From: a phage
Direction: 5' to 3' (one strand)
Assembly (NCBI GenBank): GCA_028524385.1
Contig: GCA_028524385.1_3661.2
DNA length: 52,202 bases
Both the position numbers and the translations under genes were made by a program. Below, piece by piece: positions 23,041 through 52,202 of the stretch; position 1 is the first letter of the stretch, and each line of letters starts with the position of its first letter. The notes below the pieces were generated by a model. It worked only from the letters and a program-made list of their open reading frames with translations, did no database searches and had not been told where the DNA came from.

Positions 23041-23378
23041 GTTTGTGGAGAAATATAGTTAACTACGTGTGTGGCAATCCAACTCCTGAAGAGAAGGATG
23101 TTGTGATTCACGATTTTACTAAAAGATCTCGTGAAAAAGACCTACTGCTAACAAAGGTGACTGATAAAGATCCTGCAGTAGGGGACTGGGCAGGTTTTGC
23201 GTTTACATCGGACAAATACACCTTTAACAAAGGTGACTATCTTGTTGTAGATTTTAACGAAGACATTGATGGTGCTGAACCTTACTATCAGACCCTTATT
23301 ATTGCAGGGTGCGTTGATCTCTCTGCAGGCATGCACAGTTTGATTCTTTTTGAGCTTGACTCTGAAGACCTTCAGTAG
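23037..23378 (+). CDS. hypothetical protein
   Basis: 113-aa ORF, start overlaps helicase stop. Confidence 0.4.
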   Translation: MSLWRNIVNYVCGNPTPEEKDVVIHDFTKRSREKDLLLTKVTDKDPAVGDWAGFAFTSDKYTFNKGDYLVVDFNEDIDGAEPYYQTLIIAGCVDLSAGMHSLILFELDSEDLQ

Positions 23379-23438
23379 TAAGATGTTAGTCTAAAGGGGA
23401 GGCACTCCTCCCCACAAAAACTAAGGAAGCACTAAACG

Positions 23439-30500: not shown

Positions 30501-30966
30501 CCCTTCTGGAGCAATCATTGTGAGAAGGAATGGTAAAGTGGCAGTGTGCGGTAACTGTAATAACGCCAAAGCTTACTCTTCTGTAGCAGGCAAGGAGATT
30601 TCCCGTAACGATGGTAAGCCTATCACGTATGGGGTTATGTACGGGGCACAAAAAGATAAAGTTGCAGATATGCTGGACATCTCTCCAGAGTTGGGACAAA
30701 GGGTAATCGATGCACTCTGGGATGCCAACCCTGGTCTCAAGGGGCGCAAAGAGGATCTGGAGAAATTCTGGGAAGCAACTGGTAAGAAGTTTATCTACTC
30801 TTTTGATGGTCATGCTATCTGGACCAGATCTAAACACTCTTTACTTAATGCATACCAACAGAATGGTGGTGCATCGCTGTGTGACTTAGTTGGGATACTT
30901 ATGCACCACCAAATGGTGAAGCGTGGGTGGTACGATGAAGGTGTTCGTCGTATTATTTATTACCAT
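27574..30966 (+). CDS. family A DNA polymerase (T7 gp5-like), exon 1, containing an intein
   Basis: Exo I FDFE, HCG and HGLMAWGYALG as in T7 gp5 exonuclease domain; motif A IDGSNLEQL...NGDAH; motif B-like GKPITYGVMYG after intein; track ORF continues 2 codons into the intron to stop at 30972. Confidence 0.75.
29587..30555 (+). mobile_element. intein (323 aa) with LAGLIDADG-type homing endonuclease domain
   Basis: Inserted after extein ...SNGDAH; starts CYSGDTQILTEKGWVRFEDL; two LAGLIDADG-like motifs (LLIAIHDDGH, LFIASLSNWDGW); ends VYCVTV...VAVCGN followed by +1 Cys; flanks align to T7 gp5 NGDIH|TKNQ...RDNAKTFIYGFLYG. Confidence 0.65.
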
Positions 30967-31242
30967 AAATAACATTGTGGCTTCATAGAGTAATCTATGT
31001 CGAATAACCTCTTTAACTGCGGGAAGCCTAAACCTTATGGCAAGGTAATCCGCAACGAAGCGCTCAAAAGAGCGAACGCTCAGAGGCCATTCCGAAAGGA
31101 AGTAGACCAGCAAGTGCGGTCGAAATGGGAGGATTCCTGTGGTTGCTTATCATAGGAATATGAGATGGTCCGATCCTACGTGAAAACGTATGGCTATGCA
31201 CGTAATGGTGCGGGGTAGCTTAACGACCTACCTGAACTATTG
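30967..31242 (+). ncRNA. group I self-splicing intron (ORF-less) in DNA polymerase gene
   Basis: 276 nt between exon U30966 and terminal intron G31242; P/Q/R/S core elements aactgcgggaag, aatccgcaacg, cagaggcca, gagatggtcc; IGS gugg can pair with exon end ccau. Confidence 0.65.
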
Positions 31243-38176: not shown

Positions 38177-38204
38177 TTGACATCTGAAAACTGCAGTGTA
38201 TAGT
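38177..38204 (+). promoter_or_regulatory. sigma70-type promoter
   Basis: TTGACA-16 nt-TATAGT. Confidence 0.45.
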
Positions 38205-39554: not shown

Positions 39555-39865
39555 TATTTTAAGTTATCAGGTTGCCAGAGATCAGGAGGATTTCTAAAAT
39601 GGATTTCCTCCTTTTGATATTTTACCTGCCATGATATTTTAAAATCCTTAGAAAATCAGAAAATGGATCGAAAACTAAAATGGATTTTTCAGAGTAGGCG
39701 CGACAAGCTGAATCACTCATCCTATCGTTTGCACCATATTCCAGACCACCATTACAGATTTCCCGCACATGCTTACATCTCGCTACTAGAACTTCCTCCA
39801 CTCACCCTTGACCTTTTATAGCAATAATCCAACCACTATCTTGAAGTTGCGGTGCAGCTTTCCAG

Positions 39866-39887
39866 GTACTCGATCTGTTTTTCGTTT
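39866..39887. repeat. 22-bp direct repeat, copy 1
   Basis: gtactcgatctgtttttcgttt repeated exactly at 39931..39952. Confidence 0.75.
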
Positions 39888-39930
39888 CAAATATTGAATT
39901 TTCTGAAAATTTTTCTCGATAAATTTCTCA

Positions 39931-39952
39931 GTACTCGATCTGTTTTTCGTTT
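39931..39952. repeat. 22-bp direct repeat, copy 2
   Basis: Exact copy of 39866..39887; surrounded by recurring aaaatggat and ttttctgRaaat words. Confidence 0.75.
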
Positions 39953-40188
39953 TCTGAATCGGATTTTCTGGAAATCGTTCCGGATCTCGACCTGAAATTT
40001 TTGGGGACGAAATCGATTTTTCGTTTTCAGAAATGGATTTTTAAAATTTGTATATGGAAATATTTTAGGAGGTATTATTTTATATAGAATTGTCACGGTA
40101 GGTAATTAGCATGCTAACTAAATTTATGAAATGCGAAAAGTTCTCATTTAGAACTTTGAATGATAATCATTCTCGTTTGCAGAATAAC

Positions 40189-40707: not shown

Positions 40708-40736
40708 TTGACAGCTCGGATAGTTCTTGTTATTCT
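40708..40736 (+). promoter_or_regulatory. sigma70-type promoter
   Basis: TTGACA-17 nt-TATTCT upstream of gene 40790. Confidence 0.45.
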
Positions 40737-40990: not shown

Positions 40991-41019
40991 TTGACATGTA
41001 GTCTGACACAAAATATACT
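40991..41019 (+). promoter_or_regulatory. sigma70-type promoter
   Basis: TTGACA-17 nt-TATACT. Confidence 0.55.
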
Positions 41020-41051
41020 GAAATCACAAAAGACACTAAGAGGATAAAATC

Positions 41052-41450
41052 ATGAAAACTACAACCTTTAATTTTGATAATGCTGACTTCTCTTTTTCTG
41101 ATGTTAAGAACTGCCGCCGTGAGCGTGGATTCTACAAGGCTTATAATCTGGTTGGCCTAGACGATGATAATAATTTACACGAAGTAGCCGAGATCCGGTA
41201 TTATGCCGCCTCCAGCGGTAACACTCATTATTGCGTCTTTTGGATGCACGACAGCAAGAACAATAAGTACGGTTATACTGGTGGCAAGGCGAGCGGTCAC
41301 GGTTATGATAAGGCCAATGCAGCGCTTGAAAGCGCGTTAAATGCTATGGGGATCACTGCCAACGGCTGGATCTATGAAGATGAATTTTTGTCAGCACTTG
41401 CTGCCCACCTGGGGTATAAAAAGCACATTGTGACATGCGCCCACGAATAA
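41052..41450 (+). CDS. hypothetical protein
   Basis: 132-aa ORF with SD aagagga. Confidence 0.45.
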   Translation: MKTTTFNFDNADFSFSDVKNCRRERGFYKAYNLVGLDDDNNLHEVAEIRYYAASSGNTHYCVFWMHDSKNNKYGYTGGKASGHGYDKANAALESALNAMGITANGWIYEDEFLSALAAHLGYKKHIVTCAHE

Positions 41451-41461
41451 AAAAAAAATTA

Positions 41462-41489
41462 TTGACACGCTGCAAAATTAAAGTAAACT
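41462..41489 (+). promoter_or_regulatory. sigma70-type promoter preceded by A10 tract
   Basis: A10 (41449-41458) then TTGACA-16 nt-TAAACT; 5'-proximal hairpin ggcgggaa-tgt-ttcccgcc at 41500-41518. Confidence 0.5.
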
Positions 41490-41537
41490 AGGCACAAAAG
41501 GCGGGAATGTTTCCCGCCAACACAAAGGAAAAAGATC

Positions 41538-41933
41538 ATGAATAAGAACGTACGCCGCATCATGAACGAACTGGCAAACGATGAAAAAATTATTGATATG
41601 CATTTGGTCAACATTTGCCGCCGTTGTGTAACATATAACAACCGCGCCGCAAAAGCGCGTGAGATGAACGCAAAAGGCACCTTAAAGCCCTTTCAGGTGG
41701 TTGTAAAATCTATAACTAATGCAGCAGGCCAGGCGCATGACCACAACAACGAGAGCACTAATATTGATCCGTCTTACGTAATGAAACGGATCCGGACTTG
41801 CAAGAATAAAGAGCAGGTGTATAACGTCATAGATTGGCTGGACTCCATGGGCGATGTGGTTTATAATAGGTTTTCTGCAGCTATCGAGATCCAGCTTGAC
41901 AGACTGGACGGGAAAGTACTGAAAACTTACTAA
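41538..41933 (+). CDS. hypothetical protein
   Basis: 131-aa ORF with SD aaaggaaaaag. Confidence 0.45.
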   Translation: MNKNVRRIMNELANDEKIIDMHLVNICRRCVTYNNRAAKAREMNAKGTLKPFQVVVKSITNAAGQAHDHNNESTNIDPSYVMKRIRTCKNKEQVYNVIDWLDSMGDVVYNRFSAAIEIQLDRLDGKVLKTY

Positions 41934-41980
41934 ATTTATTTTTAGATGGCCTTGACTCCAGGGCCATCAATAAAGTAAAC
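41934..41980. repeat. conserved 48-nt intergenic hairpin element, copy 1
   Basis: atttatttttaGATGGCCTTGactcCAGGGCCATCaataaagtaaac directly after stop codon; 10-bp stem, 4-nt loop, embedded TTGACT. Confidence 0.7.
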
Positions 41981-42013
41981 TAATCCTAGTTAAGCTAAAA
42001 AGGAGGCTTGAAG

Positions 42014-42133
42014 ATGAGCACTACACGCCAGCACACAAAGGTGACCATCATCGTTTGCATCATTGGGTACATCCTGGCGCAAATGTTGATGAGTAGCGCT
42101 AACAGTTTTGCAAAATTTTTCTTAAATTTTTAA
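42014..42133 (+). CDS. small hydrophobic peptide (39 aa, not in ORF track)
   Basis: ATG with strong SD aaaggagg; MSTTRQHTKVTIIVCIIGYILAQMLMSSANSFAKFFLNF has one predicted TM segment. Confidence 0.35.
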   Translation: MSTTRQHTKVTIIVCIIGYILAQMLMSSANSFAKFFLNF

Positions 42134-42161
42134 TTGACAAGCTGACTTAGATCGATATACT
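42134..42161 (+). promoter_or_regulatory. sigma70-type promoter
   Basis: TTGACA-16 nt-TATACT; 5'-proximal hairpin gggaa-aac-ttccc at 42174-42186. Confidence 0.55.
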
Positions 42162-42211
42162 AAGCACATCAACGGGAAAACTTCCCAGAACACACAAAAG
42201 GAGAAAACACC

Positions 42212-42553
42212 ATGACTACTATGACCGCCGCAGAAAAAGCCATGCAGATCGCCGCGCTGAAAAAACAGATCGCAGACCTTGAGAATAAGATCGATAACTT
42301 TGAAATCGACGAGGACAAGTACGACGAAAACTATGATGAATGGTTAGACGAGATCTACGGCGAAATTATGATCGGAAACATTTCTTTTCTTCCATCGCGT
42401 ATCCTCAAGGAGCTAGATCCTATCGCTTACCGCTGCGGATTTAGCGACTACATCGACAGCCTGGATATTGAGGACGATGAAGAATACCAGGAATTGCAGA
42501 CAGAGCTTGAGGAAGTGAAAGAAGAGCTTTCAGAACTGGAAGAAAACGAATAA
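42212..42553 (+). CDS. acidic hypothetical protein
   Basis: 113-aa ORF with SD aaaggag; very acidic C-terminal half. Confidence 0.45.
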   Translation: MTTMTAAEKAMQIAALKKQIADLENKIDNFEIDEDKYDENYDEWLDEIYGEIMIGNISFLPSRILKELDPIAYRCGFSDYIDSLDIEDDEEYQELQTELEEVKEELSELEENE

Positions 42554-42600
42554 ATTTATTTTTAGATGGCCTTGACTCCAGGGCCATCAATAAAGTAAAC
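42554..42600. repeat. conserved 48-nt intergenic hairpin element, copy 2
   Basis: Identical to copy 1, again starting right after a stop codon. Confidence 0.7.
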
Positions 42601-42639
42601 TTTACACTGTTAACACTGAACTAATGAGGAGTTAAAACC

Positions 42640-42885
42640 ATGGCAGCACTAATTACCAAATACTATGCGCCCACCAACACCAAAAGCGCCCGGATCATGG
42701 TAAAAGGCTTCGGACGTAAAAAGGTTTACACCTGGGATTATTCCCTAGACATGGAAGACAACTACACCAACGCGATGACCGATTTTATTAACGAGCTGAA
42801 TACGCGGATCTTAACAAATTATAAAATTACCGACATTGCTTATATAGGTGAAGGCGGGATCTGTTTTGTAGGCATTGTGAAATAG
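42640..42885 (+). CDS. hypothetical protein
   Basis: 81-aa ORF with SD gaggag. Confidence 0.45.
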   Translation: MAALITKYYAPTNTKSARIMVKGFGRKKVYTWDYSLDMEDNYTNAMTDFINELNTRILTNYKITDIAYIGEGGICFVGIVK

Positions 42886-42886
42886 T

Positions 42887-42936
42887 TATTTTTTCGGTGG
42901 TCCTGGCTGCAGGGCCATCTATAAAGATAATTTACT
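42887..42936. repeat. variant copy of intergenic hairpin element
   Basis: ttattttttcGGTGGTCCTGgctgCAGGGCCATCtataaag; 5' arm differs from canonical copies but still pairs with the identical 3' arm (G-U wobbles); -35-like TTGACT lost. Confidence 0.55.
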
Positions 42937-42960
42937 AACACCATGAAAGGAGAAAGTAAC

Positions 42961-43314
42961 ATGATCAGCGGGGCTAGTTTTATTATTGGCGCTATTGCTA
43001 CGGCTTTAATTGTAAACAAGATCCAGGATAAAAAGGAAAGAGGAAGTACCACCCTTGCAGAATATCCATTTTGGACATTTAACGATAACGAAGACTATAT
43101 TGTAAAGTATAAAAATAAAGAAGGTGACCAAGTAACACCTCGACCGATCCCAGCTTACAAGATGCAGGAAACACTATACCGCCTGGAGGCGGGAGGCGCA
43201 AAAATTGTAGACTTTTGGGGATACGATCACACAGATCAGGAAGCTATAAAGCGGCGTATCAGGGCTATTCAGGCCAATATTGAAGTTAGCAAGGGGGGAA
43301 TATATGAAGATTAA
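42961..43314 (+). CDS. membrane-anchored hypothetical protein
   Basis: ATG 42961 with SD aaaggag 8 nt upstream (track ORF starts at 42943 without SD); N-terminal TM segment ISGASFIIGAIATALIV. Confidence 0.45.
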   Translation: MISGASFIIGAIATALIVNKIQDKKERGSTTLAEYPFWTFNDNEDYIVKYKNKEGDQVTPRPIPAYKMQETLYRLEAGGAKIVDFWGYDHTDQEAIKRRIRAIQANIEVSKGGIYED

Positions 43315-43501
43315 TTTTGAGAAGATTGTAAAGCGGTCTCATGATTCCGAAGAGCTGCCGGAACGCCGCCAGCGTAACAATAAACTGAATAAGCCAAAAA
43401 GATTTGGGAAGATCTGGCGGAATCATTATGATCGTAAATTGCCGGGCCTCCTTTTGGAACGTGAACGGCAGGCGGAACGATACCGCCACAAAGGCAACTA
43501 A
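43304..43501 (+). CDS. small basic hypothetical protein
   Basis: ATG 43304 with SD aagggggg, overlapping upstream stop; Arg/Lys-rich. Confidence 0.35.
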   Translation: MKINFEKIVKRSHDSEELPERRQRNNKLNKPKRFGKIWRNHYDRKLPGLLLERERQAERYRHKGN

Positions 43502-43508
43502 CAACCAA

Positions 43509-43540
43509 CGCCCCGCCATCGTGCGGGGCTTTTTATTTCT
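43509..43540 (+). terminator. intrinsic terminator
   Basis: ccccgc-catcgt-gcgggg followed by ctttttatttct. Confidence 0.65.
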
Positions 43541-43659
43541 ATCCTACGAATAGCGCCCCTGGTTGGCCCCACAACGCCCTAAAGGCCCCCTACTCATGCA
43601 ATCCCCTTTCTTAACCTGAAAACATCGTCAAAGGCTGTTTTAAAGCGTTAAAAATGTTG

Positions 43660-43688
43660 TTGACATCTAAAAATGCTCTAGATATACT
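43660..43688 (+). promoter_or_regulatory. sigma70-type promoter
   Basis: TTGACA-17 nt-TATACT. Confidence 0.55.
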
Positions 43689-43724
43689 AATCACATCAAA
43701 GCGAGAAGTAAGGGGGTAAACGCC

Positions 43725-43985
43725 ATGCGTAAATTGAAAAATTTTGATAAAGTCGATGTTGTCCTAAATAATTTTTACTACTGCAATAATAAAGCCGTTT
43801 GGTGGCGTGATAGTTCCACCGATAAGGTTAAGGCGCGCTTTCTCCAGGGGCACTGGCAAGGCCGCCCAGTGATTAAAATCCTGGGGCAATTGGTAGCGTT
43901 TAAAAATTGCCGCCGTGTTGATGACGTTGAAGAGATTCTAAACATTTTACGCCACAATAATTTAAAAAATAGTGTTGACAAGTAA
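43725..43985 (+). CDS. hypothetical protein
   Basis: 86-aa ORF with SD aaggggg. Confidence 0.45.
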   Translation: MRKLKNFDKVDVVLNNFYYCNNKAVWWRDSSTDKVKARFLQGHWQGRPVIKILGQLVAFKNCRRVDDVEEILNILRHNNLKNSVDK

Positions 43986-44002
43986 GTCTCAATAAGTATA
44001 CT
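43975..44002 (+). promoter_or_regulatory. sigma70-type promoter
   Basis: TTGACA-16 nt-TATACT overlapping end of upstream gene; 5' hairpin cgggaa..ttcccg downstream. Confidence 0.5.
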
Positions 44003-44058
44003 TAAACACACAGACGGGAAACTTCCCGCCACTAACAAAGAAAATAGGAGAAAATATC

Positions 44059-44682
44059 ATGACCACCGTTAACATTACTACAGGTTACAATTTATCTTTC
44101 GACGTGCTGACCGACGAACAAAAAGAAAAAGCCGTTGAAATGGTCCGCGAAAGAGAAGAACACAGCGGGGATAACTTTTTTGCAGAAAGTGTAATTGAAT
44201 ACTATAAAGAATATGTTTTTCCAGAGTACGGGCTTGAAGATACAGATGTACATTGGTCCGGCTTTTGGTGCCAGGGTGACGGCGCGTCAATCAGTGCTGA
44301 AAACGTGGATTTAGAAAAATTCTTGCGTAAAGTCAAGTCTCTGACTAAATTCCGCTCAATTCGTCACTTGTTCGGCACAATGCACGATGGCGAGCTATCC
44401 GCAAGTGTTGAACGTGACACATACAGCCGATATAGTCACGAAAACACTGTAAACGGATACATCGATACTACATGGCTGGACCTGACCACCAAGCAAGAAA
44501 ACAAAGTGGAAGATCTGGAAGAGCTGATCACCGAGACTGTACGTGAACTATCTCGCAAGGTTTACGTAGACTTGGAAGCGGCCTATTTGGAGCAATTCAC
44601 ATCTGAAAACTTGATCGGCCTTATCGAGGCCAATGATTGGCGGTTTGATGTCGATGAATATGGTGAGATGACTTTTTCATAA
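44059..44682 (+). CDS. acidic hypothetical protein
   Basis: 207-aa ORF with SD aggag. Confidence 0.45.
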   Translation: MTTVNITTGYNLSFDVLTDEQKEKAVEMVREREEHSGDNFFAESVIEYYKEYVFPEYGLEDTDVHWSGFWCQGDGASISAENVDLEKFLRKVKSLTKFRSIRHLFGTMHDGELSASVERDTYSRYSHENTVNGYIDTTWLDLTTKQENKVEDLEELITETVRELSRKVYVDLEAAYLEQFTSENLIGLIEANDWRFDVDEYGEMTFS

Positions 44683-44690
44683 ATAAAGTG

Positions 44691-44718
44691 TTGCAATAAC
44701 CTAAAAACCTGCTATATT
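44691..44718 (+). promoter_or_regulatory. sigma70-type promoter
   Basis: TTGCAA-16 nt-TATATT; 5' hairpin ggggcaa-gacg-tttgcccc at 44728-44746. Confidence 0.45.
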
Positions 44719-44769
44719 AAAACTCAAGGGGCAAGACGTTTGCCCCACACAAAATAAAGAGGAAAAATC

Positions 44770-45150
44770 ATGAAAAACACTACCAAAGCTATTGACACCG
44801 TTATGTTTAACCTGGTTACCTTTCGCGAGGATATGAAAGATCTTCCACGTGAAACAGTGAGTGATCACATTGAAAACTATCGCAAACTAATCAAAGAGTT
44901 GCCTTTAAAACGTGACCAGTATGCGGCTAACGCTATGCTCAACGCCATGATCAAAAAGATGATCCAGTGTGATTTAACTCTGGCCTATGATTATGCAGGT
45001 GGTCGTTTTGCAGTATACAATCAGCCCGTGCCTGGTATGAGCACCACCGAAGAATTGCACGCGTTAAATCTAAAACAAGATGTATGGGATAACATGCCCC
45101 GCGTGGTGGTGTGGGCAGAAAGCGGAAAGATTTACGGCGATAATTTTTAA
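44770..45150 (+). CDS. hypothetical protein
   Basis: 126-aa ORF with SD agagga. Confidence 0.45.
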   Translation: MKNTTKAIDTVMFNLVTFREDMKDLPRETVSDHIENYRKLIKELPLKRDQYAANAMLNAMIKKMIQCDLTLAYDYAGGRFAVYNQPVPGMSTTEELHALNLKQDVWDNMPRVVVWAESGKIYGDNF

Positions 45151-45160
45151 TCAGGTAACA

Positions 45161-45186
45161 GGCGGCATATTTGCCGCCTTATTGTT
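45161..45186 (+). terminator. intrinsic terminator
   Basis: ggcggca-tatt-tgccgcc followed by ttattgtt. Confidence 0.6.
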
Positions 45187-45214
45187 AAACAGAACTGCAA
45201 AAGAGGTACATAGA

Positions 45215-45586
45215 ATGGAATTTATTATTTTGGCCGTATTAGTTGCCTTGTTTAACGCCTGGATCGCTGGCAAGATGGGTAGATCCGCCTTTTTATGGTT
45301 TATTATATCTATTTTCCTGGGGGTGGTTGCAACTATTGTACTTGTTATCCTTGCAATTGTTGACAAAGGCGATAATAGAAAGGGTAAAGTATTTTCCGAC
45401 CTGTATGACGCTCAAACTTTTGTTAACGCCTATTATAGTGATCTTCCGGTCTCCTTGCGCTGCAGCCTGGCGCAACAAGTTTTTGATGAAGCTAAAACCA
45501 GAGATCAAGCCCATGAGATATGTTTAACTGAGGCGGATCGCCTATTTGAGAGGAATAGAAAATATGTGGGCCAACCGTTTAAATAA
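45215..45586 (+). CDS. predicted membrane protein
   Basis: ATG 45215 with SD aagagg (track ORF 45080 start runs through the terminator); two hydrophobic segments (MEFIILAVLVALFNAWIAG..., FLWFIISIFLGVVATIVLVILAIV). Confidence 0.45.
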   Translation: MEFIILAVLVALFNAWIAGKMGRSAFLWFIISIFLGVVATIVLVILAIVDKGDNRKGKVFSDLYDAQTFVNAYYSDLPVSLRCSLAQQVFDEAKTRDQAHEICLTEADRLFERNRKYVGQPFK

Positions 45587-45809
45587 TGCCACGTTAATTA
45601 ATCCCTTTAGTGAAGATTTGAAGCCAGCCGCCTGGCGTGACGGATTCAATAACGAACGCTTTATTTTCAGGCCTGATCTTGAGGAATTTTATAACAATGG
45701 ATCGAACAACGACAGAGATAATTTTTCTTGTGATGTGCGTGGTGATGGTACTCCTGGGGGCCATTGTAAACCACGTCACTACTACCAGAAGGAAAGGGGG
45801 AGACGATGA
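45564..45809 (+). CDS. hypothetical protein
   Basis: ATG 45564 with SD gagagg (track start 45546 is TTG); overlaps upstream gene end. Confidence 0.35.
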   Translation: MWANRLNNATLINPFSEDLKPAAWRDGFNNERFIFRPDLEEFYNNGSNNDRDNFSCDVRGDGTPGGHCKPRHYYQKERGRR

Positions 45810-45925
45810 CAACCAAGGATAAGCCCAGCACCGATAAGGTGCGCCGGGTTATGGTATGGCTGGAGATCATCGCCCTTGAAATATTGTTAGGCGTAGGGAT
45901 GTACTTTATCGCTGTAAGTAACTAA
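45806..45925 (+). CDS. small hydrophobic peptide (39 aa, not in ORF track)
   Basis: ATG overlaps upstream stop (ATGA); SD aagggggag; MTTKDKPSTDKVRRVMVWLEIIALEILLGVGMYFIAVSN. Confidence 0.35.
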   Translation: MTTKDKPSTDKVRRVMVWLEIIALEILLGVGMYFIAVSN

Positions 45926-45930
45926 GAACG

Positions 45931-45958
45931 GCCCCCGATCATGGGGGCTTATCTTTTT
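45931..45958 (+). terminator. intrinsic terminator
   Basis: gccccc-gatcat-gggggc followed by ttatcttttt. Confidence 0.6.
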
Positions 45959-46068
45959 CAAAAAATTTTTCTTCCGGGGTGTTGCAATCTGGTCCGCAAT
46001 ATGGATAATAACAATCAACGGGGAAACATCCCCACCACACAAACAAAAGCCTGAAGAGGAGAAAGAAA

Positions 46069-46269
46069 ATGAGCAAGAATATTCGCGTTATCAATTTTAA
46101 AAAAGATGAAAAACTGGCTGTTCTGGTCGATGGTCAAGAAATCTTCAAGGGCGATTATGAAGATCATCAAACGGCGATTAGTATCACTCGCGTGATTGGT
46201 TACCATAATTTTTACCCCCAAGGCGCTGAGGCAGCGGTTAAACGAATCAAAGAGATTGTAGGCCTGTAA
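46069..46269 (+). CDS. hypothetical protein
   Basis: 66-aa ORF with SD gaggag, preceded by TATGGATAAT promoter-like box and 5' hairpin. Confidence 0.45.
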   Translation: MSKNIRVINFKKDEKLAVLVDGQEIFKGDYEDHQTAISITRVIGYHNFYPQGAEAAVKRIKEIVGL

Positions 46270-46317
46270 AATTTATTTTTAGATGGCCTTGACTCCAGGG
46301 CCATCAATAAAGTAAAT
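46270..46317. repeat. conserved 48-nt intergenic hairpin element, copy 3
   Basis: Identical core to copies at 41934 and 42554, again directly after a stop codon. Confidence 0.7.
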
Positions 46318-46362
46318 TTAAACCCTGTTAAAATACCACGCAGTTAACAAGGAGTGATAGAC

Positions 46363-46662
46363 ATGTTTATCCAGGCTAATAATCTTTATTTCTTTGATGG
46401 TCAGATCGTAGATGGTGTGGAAGTGGAGATCACCGGGTGCCCTGGCGGTCAGGCTATGACTTTTCGGAATAATGCCTTTGATGATTCTCATATCGTTATG
46501 AGAATGGAAGTTACGAAGCTGGACGATAAGAAAACACTCATTGACTATTCCGTGAAAGATCATCCAGACTACCACATGATTTATGGTGATTTGTGCATTG
46601 TTGACCGTGACAAGGTGGGCGGCATTGTGATCGCTATTGTGAACGATGTTTTCTCTGAATAA
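46363..46662 (+). CDS. hypothetical protein
   Basis: ATG 46363 with SD aaggag 8 nt upstream (track starts at GTG 46354). Confidence 0.45.
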   Translation: MFIQANNLYFFDGQIVDGVEVEITGCPGGQAMTFRNNAFDDSHIVMRMEVTKLDDKKTLIDYSVKDHPDYHMIYGDLCIVDRDKVGGIVIAIVNDVFSE

Positions 46663-46723
46663 TTCCGGCAAATGGTGCAAAATAAGGCCCCTAGCAGGGC
46701 CTGCAGCAATATAATCACATAAA

Positions 46724-46755
46724 GGCCATGCGGTTGCATGGCCTTTATTATTTTG
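46724..46755 (+). terminator. intrinsic terminator
   Basis: ggccatgc-ggtt-gcatggcc followed by tttattatttt. Confidence 0.65.
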
Positions 46756-46886
46756 GCGTTACAACGGCATACGGGGCGCTTAAAAAATTTTTAAAGAAGT
46801 ACTTGCATCATTCCCGACAATATGGATAATAAGAGTTGTCGAGGGGGAGGCCCCAATCATTAACCAGATAGATAGGAGTTAAAATC

Positions 46887-47171
46887 ATGGCTATTGTTAC
46901 CGCTGGCGATGTAGTAAAAATGGAAGCGAAGTATTTAAAAGCTGGTATGCATATCATCCGCAATGATCTTGAACTGGTCCTCACTATGGTTGATTATAAC
47001 TCCGGTCAAGATTATCCAAGTGTTGACTACTTTTTTGAGTATGTTGATGACGAATTGAAAGAAGAAGAAGCCTACCAGGGTGAATTCTGCAACTACTTTT
47101 GCCCGGATGAGGTTGTAAAAGTTATTTATCAACCTGGCGTACCTTTCCCGCTGCACGCTATCAATAAATAA
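46887..47171 (+). CDS. hypothetical protein
   Basis: 94-aa ORF with SD taggag. Confidence 0.45.
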   Translation: MAIVTAGDVVKMEAKYLKAGMHIIRNDLELVLTMVDYNSGQDYPSVDYFFEYVDDELKEEEAYQGEFCNYFCPDEVVKVIYQPGVPFPLHAINK

Positions 47172-47229
47172 ATAAACCTGGCGGGGCCGAAAAGGCCCCA
47201 ATTATGAAAATAAAGAGAGGTAAATCATC

Positions 47230-47463
47230 ATGATGGAACAAATTAAACGAGCCGAGGCTATTAATGGCAATGTGATCTATTTTGTTAGCAATAACGAGAA
47301 AGGCGTACCATATGCGGCGGTAATAGTACAGCCTGACGGTGATTATTGGTTTACTGTATACGGATCTTATTCTTTCGGGCGTCCGGTGCATGATAGAATT
47401 TTGAAAGTAGCGAACCCTACCGGGAAGAATATCACGGCAGAAAAATTTTTTGAAAATAGTTGA
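47230..47463 (+). CDS. hypothetical protein
   Basis: 77-aa ORF with SD agagagg, preceded by hairpin ggggcc-gaaaa-ggcccc. Confidence 0.45.
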   Translation: MMEQIKRAEAINGNVIYFVSNNEKGVPYAAVIVQPDGDYWFTVYGSYSFGRPVHDRILKVANPTGKNITAEKFFENS

Positions 47464-47487
47464 CATGACCATATAAGACTGTAATAT
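47460..47487 (+). promoter_or_regulatory. sigma70-type promoter
   Basis: TTGACA-16 nt-TAATAT; 5' hairpin ggggc-aacaa-gcccc at 47499-47513. Confidence 0.5.
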
Positions 47488-47535
47488 ATAAATCAAAGGG
47501 GGCAACAAGCCCCAACCACAAAGAGGATAAAAATC

Positions 47536-47724
47536 ATGGCTATTATTGCAAAGACTGAGATCGTGGGGTTAGATTCTATTCTCCTAGCATATGAGGAAGC
47601 TATAAAGATGTACGTGGTTTCCTATGGTGAATATATCCGTGAATATGAATCTATTGATCTGGCTTTTGAATGTTATATTCGCCAGGTAAATAAAGCATAT
47701 GATGATTATCGTTAAAATAGTTTG
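47536..47724 (+). CDS. small hypothetical protein (62 aa by my reading; absent from ORF track)
   Basis: ATG with SD aagagga downstream of promoter 47460. Not listed in the supplied track although above its apparent length cutoff, so my reading frame may contain an error. Confidence 0.3.
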
Positions 47725-47748
47725 ACAACATTTTCAAATAGTGTAAGA
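47721..47748 (+). promoter_or_regulatory. sigma70-type promoter
   Basis: TTGACA-16 nt-TAAGAT. Confidence 0.5.
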
Positions 47749-47786
47749 TGTATCACGTAGGGCGGCCTGGATTAGAGGATAATATA

Positions 47787-47933
47787 ATGAAAACTTTCAA
47801 CGCAACAGCCTCGACAATTGGTTATATTATTACAGTGCAAGCCGTGGATCTGGTAGCGGCAGCAAACAAGATTAAAAGAATGCTCCCGATAGGTAGTGAA
47901 TTTTCCGTTTGGGAAGTAAAAAATAAATCTTAA
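47787..47933 (+). CDS. small hypothetical protein
   Basis: ATG 47787 with SD gaggat (track starts at 47748). Confidence 0.4.
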   Translation: MKTFNATASTIGYIITVQAVDLVAAANKIKRMLPIGSEFSVWEVKNKS

Positions 47934-48013
47934 CGATAATTTGTTATCTGATAGAATGTATTTCGTAGGGCGGGGCAATAAGGCAACGCCCCCACATCGG
48001 AAAGGAAAAGATT

Positions 48014-48250
48014 ATGAGTATTGCAACAGTATTAACCGCCGTTAAAACCGCTGAATCATCCGGCTTGCATGTTGAGATTATAGATCAACCAGGTGGCGAT
48101 CTCCTTGTCCAGGTTTACCCGCCGAAAGTAGGGGATGATTATTATTGGTGCTATTCTGATACGTTCGAACAAGTAGACACGAAAGCGATCACGGCTTTTA
48201 TTTTAAAAGCTACTGAAGAAAATAACTTTCATTATAACATCAATCAATAA
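48014..48250 (+). CDS. hypothetical protein
   Basis: 78-aa ORF with SD aaaggaaaag, preceded by GC hairpin. Confidence 0.45.
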   Translation: MSIATVLTAVKTAESSGLHVEIIDQPGGDLLVQVYPPKVGDDYYWCYSDTFEQVDTKAITAFILKATEENNFHYNINQ

Positions 48251-48292
48251 ACCATAAGCGGGGCAGTAACGCCCATCAATGAGGGTAGAATC

Positions 48293-48397
48293 ATGTTAGA
48301 GAAAATTTTCACGGTTGTAATAGTGGGCCTGGTGTTATCGGTTGGAGTGGTTGCGACTCTGGCTAACATGATCCTATCTTCCAACGGTATCGGTTAA
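48293..48397 (+). CDS. small hydrophobic peptide (34 aa, not in ORF track)
   Basis: ATG with SD gagggtag; MLEKIFTVVIVGLVLSVGVVATLANMILSSNGIG. Confidence 0.3.
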   Translation: MLEKIFTVVIVGLVLSVGVVATLANMILSSNGIG

Positions 48398-48407
48398 GGT
48401 GTAACAA

Positions 48408-48623
48408 ATGATCACTAACAAAACAGGCAAAACAGAATTTTTACGCGGCTTGCAAATAGGTAAGCCTGAGATCTGGCATTGCACTAAAACACCACGTGAC
48501 GAAATGAAAGACTTCACCGCCACACTGCAACGGGTAAAGATATCCATCACGCAGAAAAAAGCCTTGATAGTGGTGGAAGGTGAGATCCCCCAAACCGTTG
48601 TTATAGTTGAGCGTACAGCATAG
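48408..48623 (+). CDS. hypothetical protein
   Basis: 71-aa ORF with SD aaggtg. Confidence 0.4.
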   Translation: MITNKTGKTEFLRGLQIGKPEIWHCTKTPRDEMKDFTATLQRVKISITQKKALIVVEGEIPQTVVIVERTA

Positions 48624-48714
48624 TTTAATTTATAGCGATACCTGAAAATTAACCAACAAAGCATAAACAGGCGGTTACCGCCGCCTTAAACGTAGCGGAA
48701 AGAGGCTAGACACA

Positions 48715-49005
48715 ATGAAAAAGATGATCGCAGTAGTTGCCCTGGTTGTTGGACTTAACGCACCTGTAATGGCTAAAGAGCTGGCAAAAGAGGTTGATCT
48801 AACGGATATCCATGCCGTCAATCAAATCGGGGTTACTTATCGCTTATGCCTTGCCGCTAAAACTTTTAATGACGGTACAACAGAGTACTACGGATTCGAG
48901 GGTATCCGGTGCGGTGAGCTTGCACGCGACCTTAAGGAAGATCCAGACCTGGAAGATCTGCCGATGACGGTAAACGGTAAAGCTTATGTAAACCGCCAAC
49001 AATAA
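48715..49005 (+). CDS. secreted / periplasmic hypothetical protein
   Basis: N-terminal signal peptide MKKMIAVVALVVGLNAPVMA; SD agaggc. Confidence 0.45.
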   Translation: MKKMIAVVALVVGLNAPVMAKELAKEVDLTDIHAVNQIGVTYRLCLAAKTFNDGTTEYYGFEGIRCGELARDLKEDPDLEDLPMTVNGKAYVNRQQ

Positions 49006-49021
49006 GTAAGGGCGATGTAAA

Positions 49022-49213
49022 ATGAATACTGAACAAGTCAGAAAGGTATTAGCAGTACTGCGTTATCATAATCATAGAAAGGTGATAGACGATCCTGATT
49101 ATGTAGATTCAAGCCTAGAAGAGGATACACTACAAGCCATAAGTAACATGCAAGAATTGCTAAAGCGCATGACAGAGAAAAACCGACCTGACTACATAGG
49201 CGAAAAAATATAA
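49022..49213 (+). CDS. hypothetical protein
   Basis: 63-aa ORF. Confidence 0.4.
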   Translation: MNTEQVRKVLAVLRYHNHRKVIDDPDYVDSSLEEDTLQAISNMQELLKRMTEKNRPDYIGEKI

Positions 49214-49227
49214 GATTTATAAACTAC

Positions 49228-49258
49228 AAAACAGGGCTTGCAATGGTCCTGTTTTTTG
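49228..49258 (+). terminator. intrinsic terminator
   Basis: acagggc-ttgcaatg-gtcctgt followed by tttttt. Confidence 0.65.
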
Positions 49259-49270
49259 TTATACTTGTTT

Positions 49271-49322
49271 CACGGCAGGCACCTGGCGACGGGGGGGGGG
49301 AGACAACCACCGGGCCTGCCTG
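49271..49322. repeat. GC-rich structured element E3 with G10 homopolymer
   Basis: cacggcaggcacctggcgac-G10-agacaaccaccgggcctgcctg; reverse complement matches E1/E2 cores; G10 at 49291-49300. Confidence 0.55.
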
Positions 49323-49345
49323 TCATATAAGAACTATAAAAACCG

Positions 49346-49374
49346 TTGACATCTGCCATGGGGTGGGGTAACAT
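49346..49374 (+). promoter_or_regulatory. sigma70-type promoter
   Basis: TTGACA-17 nt-TAACAT. Confidence 0.45.
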
Positions 49375-49428
49375 TTATCTTGAAGGGGCAAAAGTGCTCA
49401 CACAACAACCAGAAGAGAGGAAAACACC

Positions 49429-49701
49429 ATGTCAAGCTGGATTAATCAAGAAGTCGAATCACGTTTCAATGCTATTTGGGATCTCATCGAAAAAGAAGAC
49501 GGCACATCAAGCCCTTACCTCAATAATCTGGAATTTCATTTCGTGGAAGCAATGAACGCAGAATACAACCACAAAGGCGGTGCTGATGAGTTCGCCAGGG
49601 GATACGGATTCGATAACGCCAACCAAATGATCGAGGCGGTTGTTCTCCAGGCTGAAGAAGATTATCAATTAAAAACACTTGAGTTTTGCCGCCGGAAGTA
49701 A
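49429..49701 (+). CDS. hypothetical protein
   Basis: 90-aa ORF with SD agagagga. Confidence 0.45.
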   Translation: MSSWINQEVESRFNAIWDLIEKEDGTSSPYLNNLEFHFVEAMNAEYNHKGGADEFARGYGFDNANQMIEAVVLQAEEDYQLKTLEFCRRK

Positions 49702-49761
49702 TAAGATAATGACACGGGCCGAAAGGCCCACTAATCAAGACCACAAAGAGAGGAAAACATT

Positions 49762-50025
49762 ATGAAACGCATCGACCAACTTAAAGTAGTTCAACATATG
49801 GCTTACCGTATCCTTGAAGTTCAAAAAGGCAGCAAAAAAGAAGTTTGTGAAAAAGCTTATAAAATTTTCACCCGCAAAAAGGACGACTGGATGTTACGCC
49901 AGACTAAAAAGGACGATATCTTGGGATACCTGGAAGAAGAGATCCGCCTTGCCGAGCAAGAAGAGATCCGCCGTGATGAAGCAGAATATCAGGCAAGTTG
50001 GGAATACTGGATGAATAACAAGTAA
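49762..50025 (+). CDS. hypothetical protein
   Basis: 87-aa ORF with SD agagagga, preceded by GNRA-loop hairpin gggcc-gaaa-ggccc. Confidence 0.45.
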   Translation: MKRIDQLKVVQHMAYRILEVQKGSKKEVCEKAYKIFTRKKDDWMLRQTKKDDILGYLEEEIRLAEQEEIRRDEAEYQASWEYWMNNK

Positions 50026-50088
50026 TACAGCAAGCCATACAACCAGGGGCGAACGCCCCTTGATCCTGCAAAAATAATGCTATCCTTA

Positions 50089-50117
50089 TTGACAAGGATC
50101 GGCAGTTTTGCTATATT
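50089..50117 (+). promoter_or_regulatory. sigma70-type promoter with palindrome around -35
   Basis: TTGACA-17 nt-TATATT; arms atcctt / aaggat flank the -35 hexamer. Confidence 0.5.
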
Positions 50118-50164
50118 CTTTTTCAGAAGGAAGTTGTAAGAAAATTATCTAAGAGGTAAACACC

Positions 50165-50584: not shown

Positions 50585-50602
50585 TTTCTTAACTAAACTA
50601 TC

Positions 50603-50630
50603 AGGGGCTTTAAAAGGCCCCTTTCTTTTT
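50603..50630 (+). terminator. intrinsic terminator
   Basis: aggggc-loop-gcccct followed by ttcttttt; last terminator before non-coding terminal region. Confidence 0.65.
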
Positions 50631-51238
50631 GTCTGTATTTCTCCTACCACAAACGGCCCCACCTGGCAAGTGGAATAATTGACTAGCCATCAATCCCACA
50701 CACTGTACAAACATACATATAAAATAGCTATTGCATAATCTTTCATTGTGTGGTAGCAGGGCCATTTTTACACGTTTTTCCTTCCAAAACTACATGTAAT
50801 TCCACTATTGCACAAAATTTAACCTTATGCACAATATCTCTTTCTTGTCAACAACTAAAAATCTTTATAAGTCATACACTTACATAACCACAAAAGCGTG
50901 TTCTACGTGAAAAATCGGGTATAACTATAGCCACTAAATTACAGAATTCACGTAGCGTCACCATTCTATAGTCTGCTAAGTATTTATTCCGACCATAGAA
51001 TAACGGAATAGTCAATACCTGCATAAAATAATTATTCGTGTAAACTGCATAACATAAATCGGCTCAGGTGTCAACATTTTTCGTAAACAGCCTGAAATTG
51101 TCACGGTAAGTTATTATAAGCATATAAATCTTTAGTCGTCTAATGTTTACTGTACATTACTATACTGACTGGAATCATTAGATGACTAAGAGAAAGATAA
51201 GAAATAATTAACAATACAATTATTTTATATGTAACAAT

Positions 51239-51415
51239 AAGGCAACTATGCAAACGAATGGCATGGCGCGACGGAGTCGCGACATAATATAAAAGCAGTA
51301 ACCATCACCCCCGTGATAGTTTGTCTGCAATCTATTATTCAGATCATAGTTGCCTTGTATTTAGTTAATCATGACATAACAAGCAAGGCAACTATAGATC
51401 TTATAATAGTTGCCC
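51239..51415. repeat. iteron cluster: AAGGCAACTAT in alternating orientation (4 copies)
   Basis: Copies at 51239-51249 (+), 51346-51356 (-), 51385-51395 (+), 51406-51415 (-); last two form ggcaactat-N12-atagttgcc inverted pair. Confidence 0.6.
51248..51267. repeat. 20-bp direct repeat, copy 1
   Basis: atgcaaacgaatggcatggc, repeated exactly at 51509..51528. Confidence 0.7.
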
Positions 51416-51508
51416 TGCTTTCATATTATGTCATAGAAACACCCGAAGGGGTGACCAAAGGTCACCTGGCATAGCCAGCGAAAGATTATTAACTTGTTAA
51501 TTATTGTC

Positions 51509-51528
51509 ATGCAAACGAATGGCATGGC
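51509..51528. repeat. 20-bp direct repeat, copy 2
   Basis: Exact copy of 51248..51267. Confidence 0.7.
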
Positions 51529-51569
51529 TTATCATATCTGTATAAATAGTTAGCTATGTAAACAGTCAG

Positions 51570-51626
51570 GCATGTCAATTATGTTCAGTGTGTCACCATT
51601 ATGTCATATTGTGTCAGTTATGTCAG
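51570..51626. repeat. helically phased TGTCA repeats
   Basis: T(A/G)TGTCA occurs 5-6 times at 9-11 bp spacing (about 51573, 51583, 51591, 51602, 51612, 51621). Confidence 0.55.
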
Positions 51627-52202
51627 ACAAGTTTTTCTCCTCTTTGTCAAGTGCTGCATGAAAAATTTACAATCTGGTATGGTAGCATTTTTGCGGCCCC
51701 GTTTACATTCAGTGATGTATGTATAAGCCTTGTTGTGTGGGCGTTTAGACGTCTAGACGGTTGGAAGTCCACAGGTCAATATCTAATCTATCGGCTGCTA
51801 ACTATATCCCACACAAATAGTAAGAAATATAATTGTTATGCGTGTAAACAGTAACTCATGTTATCAATCCCTGTATGTGTCGCCAGTGGTGCGCATAATG
51901 GGTATTATGTTAAATTGCCCGTAATGATAATGGTTCTCACAATGATATGTATTCTCATTCCCCCACACAAAATAGATTGCAAATGTTGTGCCACTATGTG
52001 AACGGCCTCACCTATTAATTTGCCTCACTGCCTCGATATTTGAGAATTGTTATAAGAATGAGAAGTATTCCCATTTCGTCCGCCTGGCAGCACTCCAGTC
52101 GCTACGGCTCATAACAGGGCAGAACCAGTCCTATTCAGATATTTCTGGCTGGCTATTCAGGTCTGTGTGGGAAAAGCCAACCCCTCCGGCGGCGGGGAGG
52201 GG

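Follow-up and report, generated by a model that had tools for sequence, protein, structure and literature searches.

Promoter and stem-loop cassettes of a known kind in the early-gene array of an rV5-like phage

Why should so many small early genes of a phage lie behind a promoter that is followed, within a few bases, by a short GC-rich hairpin? The question is raised by a 52,202-nt stretch of phage DNA (contig GCA_028524385.1_3661.2 of GenBank assembly GCA_028524385.1; hereafter the window), and in particular by its positions 40991-50164. A preliminary description of these 9 kb proposed that nearly every gene has its own near-consensus promoter, a hairpin at the predicted transcript start, a CA-rich leader and a strong Shine-Dalgarno (SD) sequence. 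We find that this pattern is real: it holds up statistically and recurs across the family, although it had been partly overstated. Judged from their sequence, the cassettes are best filed as composite early-expression cassettes of the promoter-early stem-loop (PeSL) type, a known kind that is now found in rV5-like and phi92-like phages.

The window derives from an rV5-like phage (Vequintavirus) with about 91% identity to MiataMamis, EdH4 and rV5. Relatives for comparison were taken from GenBank phage records; the 9-kb stretch matches 248 of them, many from Vequintavirus (rV5-like) coliphages, and in all matching Vequintavirus it consists of small hypothetical genes arrayed on one strand. The window holds 29 such genes between 40.5 and 50.6 kb, all hypothetical in relatives and matching only PHROG families of unknown function; for seven early proteins, neither Pfam nor PHROG scans hinted at a function. 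That promoters are arrayed here was known before. Sigma70-type promoters P195A, P192, P186, P168 and P164 are annotated in the early region of the rV5 record, and the rV5 genome paper (PMC3606486) counts 33 such promoters and 20 terminators and leaves the hairpins behind the promoters unmentioned.

A promoter consensus scan of 38.0-52.2 kb returned 61 promoter-like sites, compared with 35.8 +/- 5.1 in shuffled sequences, and the strong sites are nearly all on the + strand. They have the form TTGACA/TTGCAA-16/17-TAnnnT, with an A/T-rich tract upstream (AAAAATAGTG, AAATTTTTAA and similar). When promoters were assigned to genes by hand, 18-19 of the 29 genes had a sigma70-type promoter of their own; the excess of promoters thus stands, and "nearly every gene" was too strong. 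The array also reaches beyond 40991-50164, with promoters at 38177 and 40708 and a cassette at 23356.

The promoters fall into three arrangements. At 9-11 of them, termed class A, a strict stem finder places the beginning of a GC stem-loop 8-12 nt after the -10; the range depends on whether a degenerate member (47722) and one with a weak promoter (49679) are counted with those at 41462, 42134, 43975, 44691, 45982, 46803, 47460, 47930 and 49346. At six others, class B, the stem-loop lies around the -35 (the four copies of a 51-nt repeat at 41931, 42551, 42882 and 46268, and the promoters at 49228 and 50089), and three promoters (40708, 40991, 43660) have no stem-loop. The five hairpins quoted in the preliminary description are all present (41500-41518, 42174-42186, 44728-44746, 47499-47513, 49716-49729), as are its CA-rich strings. 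Its near-consensus promoter holds for most cassettes and fails for its own example at 49716, where the match is only 8/12; its hairpin near the start applies to class A only. The class A cassettes are as follows.

41462-41537, + strand: -35 TTGACA at 41462, -10 TAAACT at 41484-41489; stem-loop GGCGGGAATGTTTCCCGCC at 41500-41518, gap 10; leader aacacaaaggaaaaagatc; ATG at 41538.
42134-42211, + strand: TTGACA-16-TATACT; stem-loop GGGAAAACTTCCC at 42174-42186, gap 12; leader agaacacacaaaaggag; ATG at 42212; corresponds to rV5 P192.
43975-44058, + strand: TTGACA-16-TATACT; stem-loop CGGGAAACTTCCCG at 44015-44028; leader ccactaacaaagaaaataggag; ATG at 44059.
44691-44769, + strand: TTGCAA-16-(TGc)TATATT, an extended -10; stem-loop GGGGCAAGACGTTTGCCCC at 44728-44746, gap 9; leader acacaaaataaagagg; ATG at 44770.
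45982-46068, + strand: TTGCAA-16-GATAAT; stem-loop GGGGAAACATCCCC at 46020-46033, gap 10; leader accacacaaacaaaagcctgaagaggag; ATG at 46069.
46803-46886, + strand: TTGCAT-16-GATAAT; stem-loop GGGGGAGGCCCC at 46843-46854, gap 12; ATG at 46887.
47460-47535, + strand: TTGACA-16-TAATAT; stem-loop GGGGCAACAAGCCCC at 47499-47513, gap 11; leader aaccacaaagagg; ATG at 47536.
47722-47787, + strand: degenerate member, TTGACA-16-TAAGAT followed by a truncated hairpin gtatcacgtaGGGCGGCCTGG; the hairpin is full in EdH4 and C12.
47930-48013, + strand: TTAACG-16-(TGa)TAGAAT; stem-loop GGGCGGGGCAATAAGGCAACGCCCCC at 47968-47993, gap 10; ATG at 48014; the sequence type is shared with Phapecoctavirus and Justusliebigvirus cassettes.
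49346-49428, + strand: TTGACA-17-TAACAT; stem-loop GGGCAAAAGTGCTC at 49386-49399 with one G.U pair, gap 11; leader acacaacaaccagaagagagg; ATG at 49429; rV5 P168.
49679-49761, + strand: weak-promoter cassette, TTGAGT-17-TAAGAT (8/12); stem-loop GGGCCGAAAGGCCC at 49716-49729, gap 8; leader actaatcaagaccacaaagagagg; ATG at 49762.
23356-23438, + strand: class A cassette outside the early region, TTGACT-17-TAAGAT; stem-loop GGGGAGGCACTCCTCCCC at 23396-23413, gap 11; leader acaaaaactaagg.

In the 11 window cassettes the stem begins 8-12 nt past the -10, and this distance has its mode at 10 nt in both Phapecoctavirus B15 and Justusliebigvirus alia. Helix starts were those of the strict stem finder, an earlier measure based on minimum free energy having been blurred by weak outer pairs. 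Set against the base rate of hairpins, this promoter-to-stem spacing has a binomial p of 1.7e-4 in the window, 1.7e-16 in B15 and 5.5e-10 in alia. The cassettes also fold better than their shuffles, with z < -2 in 37 of 40 and a mean z of -3.9. RNAalifold predicted no structure from a MAFFT alignment of the 40 paralogous cassettes, in which stems of unequal length fall out of register; the evidence for structure comes from single-sequence folding and from orthologue alignments.

The sequence that follows the stem is equally distinctive in composition. A+C makes up 85% of the 10 nt 3' of the stems, compared with 50% window-wide (p < 5e-6), and 79% of the -30..-14 region of early cassette genes, compared with 52% in other genes (p 2e-4); class A leaders contain 4 TT dinucleotides where 16.7 are expected. 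The CA-rich leader is thereby confirmed. The strong SD sequence is not a cassette feature and was dropped as one, the mean SD-antiSD energy being -7.5 kcal/mol in early genes and in the other genes of the window alike. Separately, we noted 21 ACA triplets in the class A leaders (41519-49761), where 5.2 are expected. ACA is the cleavage site of E. coli MazF (PMC3997798), and so many of them imply that class A early mRNAs should be unusually sensitive to this toxin.

The cassettes are kept in fourteen Vequintavirus loci. The same layout is found in 12-17 copies each in Phapecoctavirus and Justusliebigvirus (Stephanstirmvirinae), where it is more stereotyped: TTGACA-16/17-TAnnnT, gtaYCACRTA, GGGCGG..CCGCYC, acaacagaagagaga, ATG. 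Seunavirus PVP-SE1 has only two class A hairpins, and CA-rich leaders are present; on its - strand at 21.4-35.7 kb most early promoters have such a leader (e.g. ctccacacattgacaagcgaaacaaatcaaccacacaaacgagg) without a hairpin, and leader and hairpin can therefore be uncoupled. An IMG/VR search with a 207-aa early protein yielded 2 close and 6 distant loci, and the distant environmental phages, which share that one early protein, carry no such cassettes. Several records used here (loci L016-L018, L020 and L021) are entitled "Campylobacter phage" (C12, D#, A140, C5, B15; UNVERIFIED); by sequence they are rV5-like or phAPEC8-like coliphages.

Stems differ among the cassettes of the window (GGCGGGAA, GGGAA, GGGGCAA, GGGGA, GGGGC, GGGCA), and orthologous hairpins vary as well. 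Thirteen relatives retain the 41462 cassette, among them variants with a flipped loop or a replaced inner stem; the replacement is seen in the orthologue at locus L012, where pairing is retained. Relatives of the 44691 cassette show loop flips and G.U variants, and the 43975 hairpin has in most relatives an 8-bp stem, GGCGGGAA/TTCCCGCC. Among 46803 orthologues one stem pair passes from G-C through G.T to A-T (GGGGG/CCCCC, GGGGGC../..GCCTCC, GGAGG/CCTCC), and an extra pair has been gained among those of the 45982 hairpin. At locus L020 the 49386 hairpin has been swapped for one of the 44728 type. Stem variants more stable as + sense RNA number 26, and those more stable as - sense RNA 7. In the commonest Stephanstirmvirinae stem, GGGCGG..CCGCTC, the G.U pair becomes A.C on the opposite strand (folding energy dG -14.4 vs -10.2). 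As far as such comparisons reach, it is structure rather than sequence that is conserved, on the transcribed strand, and the evidence leans, only moderately, toward selection acting on the + strand RNA. At 41500, 44728 and 48669, loops are flipped in loci L004, L014 and L018 relative to the window, some orthologous hairpins being exact reverse complements; this suggests template switching or inversion at palindromes.

Cassettes of this general kind were described by Arbiol et al. (2010; PMC2839356) as PeSLs in the T4-like phages RB49 and phi1. An AT-rich tract, a sigma70 promoter of consensus type and a stem-loop of the form G(n)-loop-C(n) make up a PeSL, together with the SD and start codon of the ORFan that it precedes; PeSLs are concentrated in hyperplastic regions and form five subclasses by stem-loop position, one of them "downstream of the -10". 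Those authors took the stem-loop to terminate or attenuate transcription and the cassette to act as a linker in recombination, one that can even form mini-circles. Comeau et al. (2014; PMC4122927) added T4/PST and KVP40/nt-1, whose PeSLs have the stem-loop on the upstream side of the promoter. The window cassettes share with PeSLs the order of promoter, stem-loop, SD and ORFan, the many copies in a hyperplastic early region, the G-T stem pairs and the occurrence at insertion, deletion and replacement junctions between related phages; both of their stem-loop positions, after the -10 and over the -35, are among the five subclasses. In the portion of RB49 that we read, the region upstream of rIIB (TGgTATAAT, 10 nt, GGGCGGCGATAGTCGCCC, aactaatagagg) has the class A layout with a similar hairpin, and in the remaining cassettes the stem-loop covers the -10 or occupies the spacer. 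By eye, RB49 leaders (catcaagacaaaacaatgagg; atcaagacaa) resemble the window leader at 49730.

The cassettes also differ from published PeSLs in three respects. Their carriers are rV5-like or phi92-like rather than T4-like. The class with the stem-loop after the -10 is dominant here, at a fixed 8-12 nt, whereas the stem-loop lies mostly within the promoter in RB49 and upstream of it in T4 and KVP40. Finally, no T-tract follows the post-promoter hairpins of the window, a feature at odds with the published interpretation as terminators. None of the five papers found to mention PeSLs deals with rV5-like phages, and a literature search brought up no usable transcriptome or start-site map for rV5-, phAPEC8- or phi92-like phages. 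The preliminary description had missed that the PeSL type was known, that a third of the promoters have their stem-loop at the -35, and that the hairpins are indel junctions. The promoters outside class A, and the hairpins without a promoter, are listed here.

41931-41981, + strand: class B, 51-nt repeat; palindrome GATGGCC/GGCCATC whose loop contains the -35 TTGACT; -10 TAAACT.
42551-42601, 46268-46318 and 42882-42932: further copies of the class B repeat, 100%, 96% and 71% identical; in the last the stem is maintained via two G.T pairs, in the + sense.
49228-49265, + strand: class B, a true terminator-promoter composite; terminator AAAACAGGGC..GTCCTGTTTT with T run, -35 TTGCAA in the loop, -10 TATACT at 49260-49265.
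50082-50117, + strand: class B, stem ATCCTT/AAGGAT (50082-50087 / 50094-50099) enclosing the -35 of TTGACA-17-(TGc)TATATT; rV5 P164; relatives have CCCT/AGGG instead, a compensatory change.
40991-41051, + strand: promoter without stem-loop, TTGACA-17-TATACT; CA-rich leader gaaatcacaaaagacactaagagg.
40708-40736 and 43660-43688: promoters similar to that at 40991; rV5 P195A and P186 belong to this group.
48259-48292, + strand: promoter-less hairpin (half-cassette), GCGGGGCAGTAACGCCC and leader; ATG at 48293.
47183-47229, + strand: promoter-less intergenic hairpin, GGGGCCGAAAAGGCCCC and leader; ATG at 47230/47233.
48669-48686: promoter-less hairpin similar to that at 47183; ATG at 48715.

Near the composite element, a long GC hairpin (GGCAGGC, a run of 8-9 G, GCCTGCC) occupies 49275-49322 between promoters 49238 and 49346.

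Several changes of gene content among the relatives are joined at the cassettes. The gene at 48014-48250 (segment 47992-48267) is absent from EdH4, C12, B15 and alia, and the junction, 47991|48268, falls inside two similar hairpins, which accounts for the hairpin at 48259, a half-cassette without a promoter. The homology of eight relatives ends at 47730, just 3' of a -35. Taken over the region, 12 of 38 breakpoint clusters lie within elements that cover 13.9% of it. Over the 1.2 kb at 47765-49011, identity to genomes of another subfamily, those of Phapecoctavirus and Justusliebigvirus, is 86-90%, with the edges of homology at cassettes or gene ends; this indicates a recent exchange between subfamilies.

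We hold with moderate confidence that the whole is a mobile early-expression module of PeSL type, in which the class A stem-loop is a 5'-proximal, non-terminating structure of the gene's own mRNA (a stabiliser or insulator) and is followed by an unstructured leader. Such a module would run from an A-rich tract through a near-consensus sigma70 promoter, the stem-loop, an A/C-only, U-poor spacer of 8-25 nt and an ordinary SD to the ATG of a small ORFan. Host RNA polymerase would start a few bases 5' of the stem, the stem-loop setting in at about +2 to +6 of the predicted transcript. Because the predicted start lies so few bases before it, the hairpin would form the 5'-proximal end of its own mRNA and, by analogy with known stabilisers, may hinder the 5'-end decay that depends on RppH and RNase E. 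The spacer, being free of U, would keep the hairpin from causing intrinsic termination; being unable to pair with the purine SD or the G-rich stem, it would also leave the ribosome site open. On read-through transcripts the hairpin could insulate neighbouring cistrons, and at the DNA level the repeated cassettes could serve as joints for the gain, loss and exchange of early genes. An A/C-only tract directly 5' of the SD, beside a stable hairpin, also resembles unstructured CA-rich or standby leaders, which can enhance translation; an enhancer role is not required, because the absence of U fits the avoidance of termination as well.

Precedents exist for a stabilising stem-loop at the 5' end. 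Base pairing at the 5' terminus hinders decay dependent on RppH and RNase E, and the ompA and papA stem-loops are stabilisers, according to the work cited as references 92-95 in PMC3997798; the T7 g10 stem-loop raises expression (PMC6146998). Like the ompA and papA 5' untranslated regions (UTRs) and the T7 gene 10 leader, the cassettes have a simple hairpin at or near the 5' end, structure over sequence, an unstructured leader and a good SD, and the g10 leader offers another phage example of the order promoter, 5' stem-loop, leader, SD. They differ from these in having promoter-less and -35-embedded copies and in a predicted 5' tail, 0-6 nt, that is only partly within tolerance. Emory and colleagues are said to have found, in 1992, that 5' stem-loop stabilisers tolerate few unpaired 5' nucleotides. 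The functional idea of the preliminary description, a 5'-proximal hairpin with an unstructured leader, agrees with the fixed spacing, the absence of a U-tract, the conservation of stems, mostly in the + sense, and a leader composed solely of A and C, while stabilisation itself is only inferred; we consider the idea plausible, better supported than a terminator label, and unproven.

Several observations weigh against this interpretation. If transcription starts 6-8 nt past the -10, the predicted 5' tail left unpaired is 0-6 nt long, and toward the upper end of that range protection would be borderline. At six promoters of the region and in most RB49 PeSLs the stem-loop overlaps the promoter itself, at the -35, the spacer or the -10, and three or four hairpins (47183, 48259, 48669) have no promoter. 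The core role of the hairpin may thus be another one, because stem-loops within a promoter cannot cap its own transcript. PVP-SE1 mostly manages without the hairpin. The constant spacing could partly reflect descent from one founder cassette, most clearly in the Stephanstirmvirinae, whose copies are alike. In-stem wobble events within Vequintavirus are modest in number (about 10 + sense vs 4 - sense), and the depletion of RNase E motifs (RNWUU, 2 vs 5.6 expected, p 0.12) is a weak trend. Lastly, an RB49 stem-loop, that of PeSL211/210, lowered expression like rrnB T1 when placed before lacZ (PMC2839356), a result that favours a terminator.

In the strongest alternative the element acts primarily as DNA: recombination would be concentrated at the GC palindromes, or a phage protein (a recombinase, or a repressor that shuts off early promoters) would bind them, and the RNA hairpin would be a by-product. 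The indel and replacement junctions inside hairpins and promoters are what it predicts, and so are the loop flips to exact reverse complements, the hairpin swapped between cassettes and the near-identical cassette copies in B15 and alia. It would also suit the class B and RB49 stem-loops that overlap the -35 or -10, and a recombination role was proposed, and mini-circles shown, in PMC2839356. However, the stems of the window are too heterogeneous to suggest one sequence-specific protein, the tolerated G.T pairs are biased to the + sense, pairing only in RNA, and neither the A/C-only 3' flank nor the fixed distance from the -10 is explained. As the primary role we consider this unlikely; a recombination role is compatible with the RNA role and is supported as part of the best explanation.

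Could the stem-loops instead terminate or attenuate transcription from upstream genes, their place after the next promoter being incidental? Besides the lacZ result, this is how databases describe some of them: hairpins of the 41500 and 47499 types are labelled "putative transcriptional terminator" in the EdH4 record, and ASO2A labels one likewise. The likeness to Rho-independent terminators is evident, both being short, intergenic, GC-rich hairpins of which annotation pipelines call some terminators. Terminators of the ordinary kind are, however, present separately.

43510-43537, + strand: intrinsic terminator, GC stem and TTTTTATTT.
45160-45179, 45930-45949, 46719-46748 and 50603-50622: intrinsic terminators of the same class, 3' of gene ends and 5' of the next promoter.

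The terminator of the 49228 composite also counts among them. These T-tract terminators have 5-8 T in the 10 nt 3' of the stem, whereas class A hairpins have 0-3, lack a U-tract and lie downstream of the next gene's promoter, with a spacing fixed to the -10 and not to the upstream stop codon. A terminator 10 nt past the -10 would abort the promoter's own transcripts. The preliminary description had named termination of upstream genes as one finding that would count against it, and the separate terminators before the promoters do not favour that outcome. We regard termination or attenuation of upstream transcription as improbable, and a pure terminator role for the class A hairpins is disfavoured on these features.

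Two further possibilities fare much worse. Hairpins that terminate antisense (- strand) transcription, shielding the early region from convergent or spurious transcripts, would account for the six that a scan flags as terminator-like on the - strand (41518-41500, 44030-44013, 44746-44728, 46037-46016, 47513-47499, 48686-48669) and for the A-rich 5' flank, which gives a T-rich tail on that strand. Yet the G.U pairs become A.C mismatches there, the counterpart flank in B15 and alia (tatgtgatac) is not a T-tract, and the - strand of the region is devoid of genes, with promoter-like sites that are only weak, so that we find such a function very hard to credit. Equally remote is the idea that a regulator made by the phage, either a translational repressor or an endoribonuclease guide, binds hairpin and leader as its RNA operator and so shuts off early genes jointly: the element is common to many early genes and the loops of the Stephanstirmvirinae are similar (AATGG/AATAG), but stems and loops in the window vary freely and no candidate regulator emerges among early proteins without informative family matches. 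Three known element types were also rejected. RNase III sites of the T7 early-region type need duplexes of about 20 bp, and stems here are 4-10 bp; N4-type hairpin promoters are contradicted by the clear sigma70 hexamers; and HK022 put-like antiterminator RNAs have two long stem-loops rather than one short hairpin. An Rfam scan of the window found no family over the hairpins; its sole match was a group I catalytic intron at 30957-31192 on the + strand (RF00028, 64.7 bits, E 3e-14), within a + strand gene block.

The non-terminating 5'-proximal hairpin invites a more speculative extension, which we put forward as doubtful. Hairpin and U-free leader might together make an "RNase E-proof" 5' UTR: with a 5' stem-loop as cap and with U-rich entry sites removed from the leader, some 10-20 early transcripts could be spared while an Srd-like protein, which rV5-like phages encode, accelerates the decay of host mRNA. 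The T4 Srd protein stimulates RNase E on host mRNA, as the study of Qi et al. (2015) is cited in PMC4980113. On the - strand of the window, positions 12732-13775 encode a 347-aa open reading frame (ORF), a homologue of rV5 gp11, that matches the PHROG families Srd anti-sigma factor (2.9e-10) and decoy of host sigma70 (3e-15); its best family carries the label HNH endonuclease, and Pfam gives no match. If true, the cassette would carry a built-in self/non-self mark for mRNA turnover, inherited by any newly acquired gene.

Other features of the window were recorded on the way. The 90-aa early protein encoded at 49429-49701 has homologues, 37-43% identical, in T1-like siphoviruses (phSE-2, U136B, Sazh) and one Pseudomonas phage, and the rV5 record notes RB49 homologues for the ORFs neighbouring its counterpart. 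Three tandem-like repeats of about 65-74 nt (TACTCGATCTGTTTTTCGTTT...GGATTTT) lie at 39856-40041, where there is no convincing gene. Downstream of the last early gene, 50600-52202 is about 1.6 kb of AT-rich sequence (GC 0.38) without convincing ORFs, containing an exact 20-nt repeat ATGCAAACGAATGGCATGGC (51248, 51509), inverted repeats GGCAACTAT/ATAGTTGCC and three copies of CCCACACAAA(A)TAG. Several GenBank records of relatives begin there, so that a genome end or an origin may be located in it.

For the phages concerned, these results extend the mobile promoter/stem-loop cassettes of PeSL type from T4-like phages to the Vequintavirinae and Stephanstirmvirinae. With gene gain and loss joined inside the hairpins, the cassettes help to explain how early host-takeover genes are shuffled in phages relevant to therapy. 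The post-promoter stem-loops are unlike terminators despite their database labels, and a concrete alternative for the function of the stem-loop is now available. If the design does stabilise and insulate transcripts, it would be a compact natural expression module for synthetic biology.

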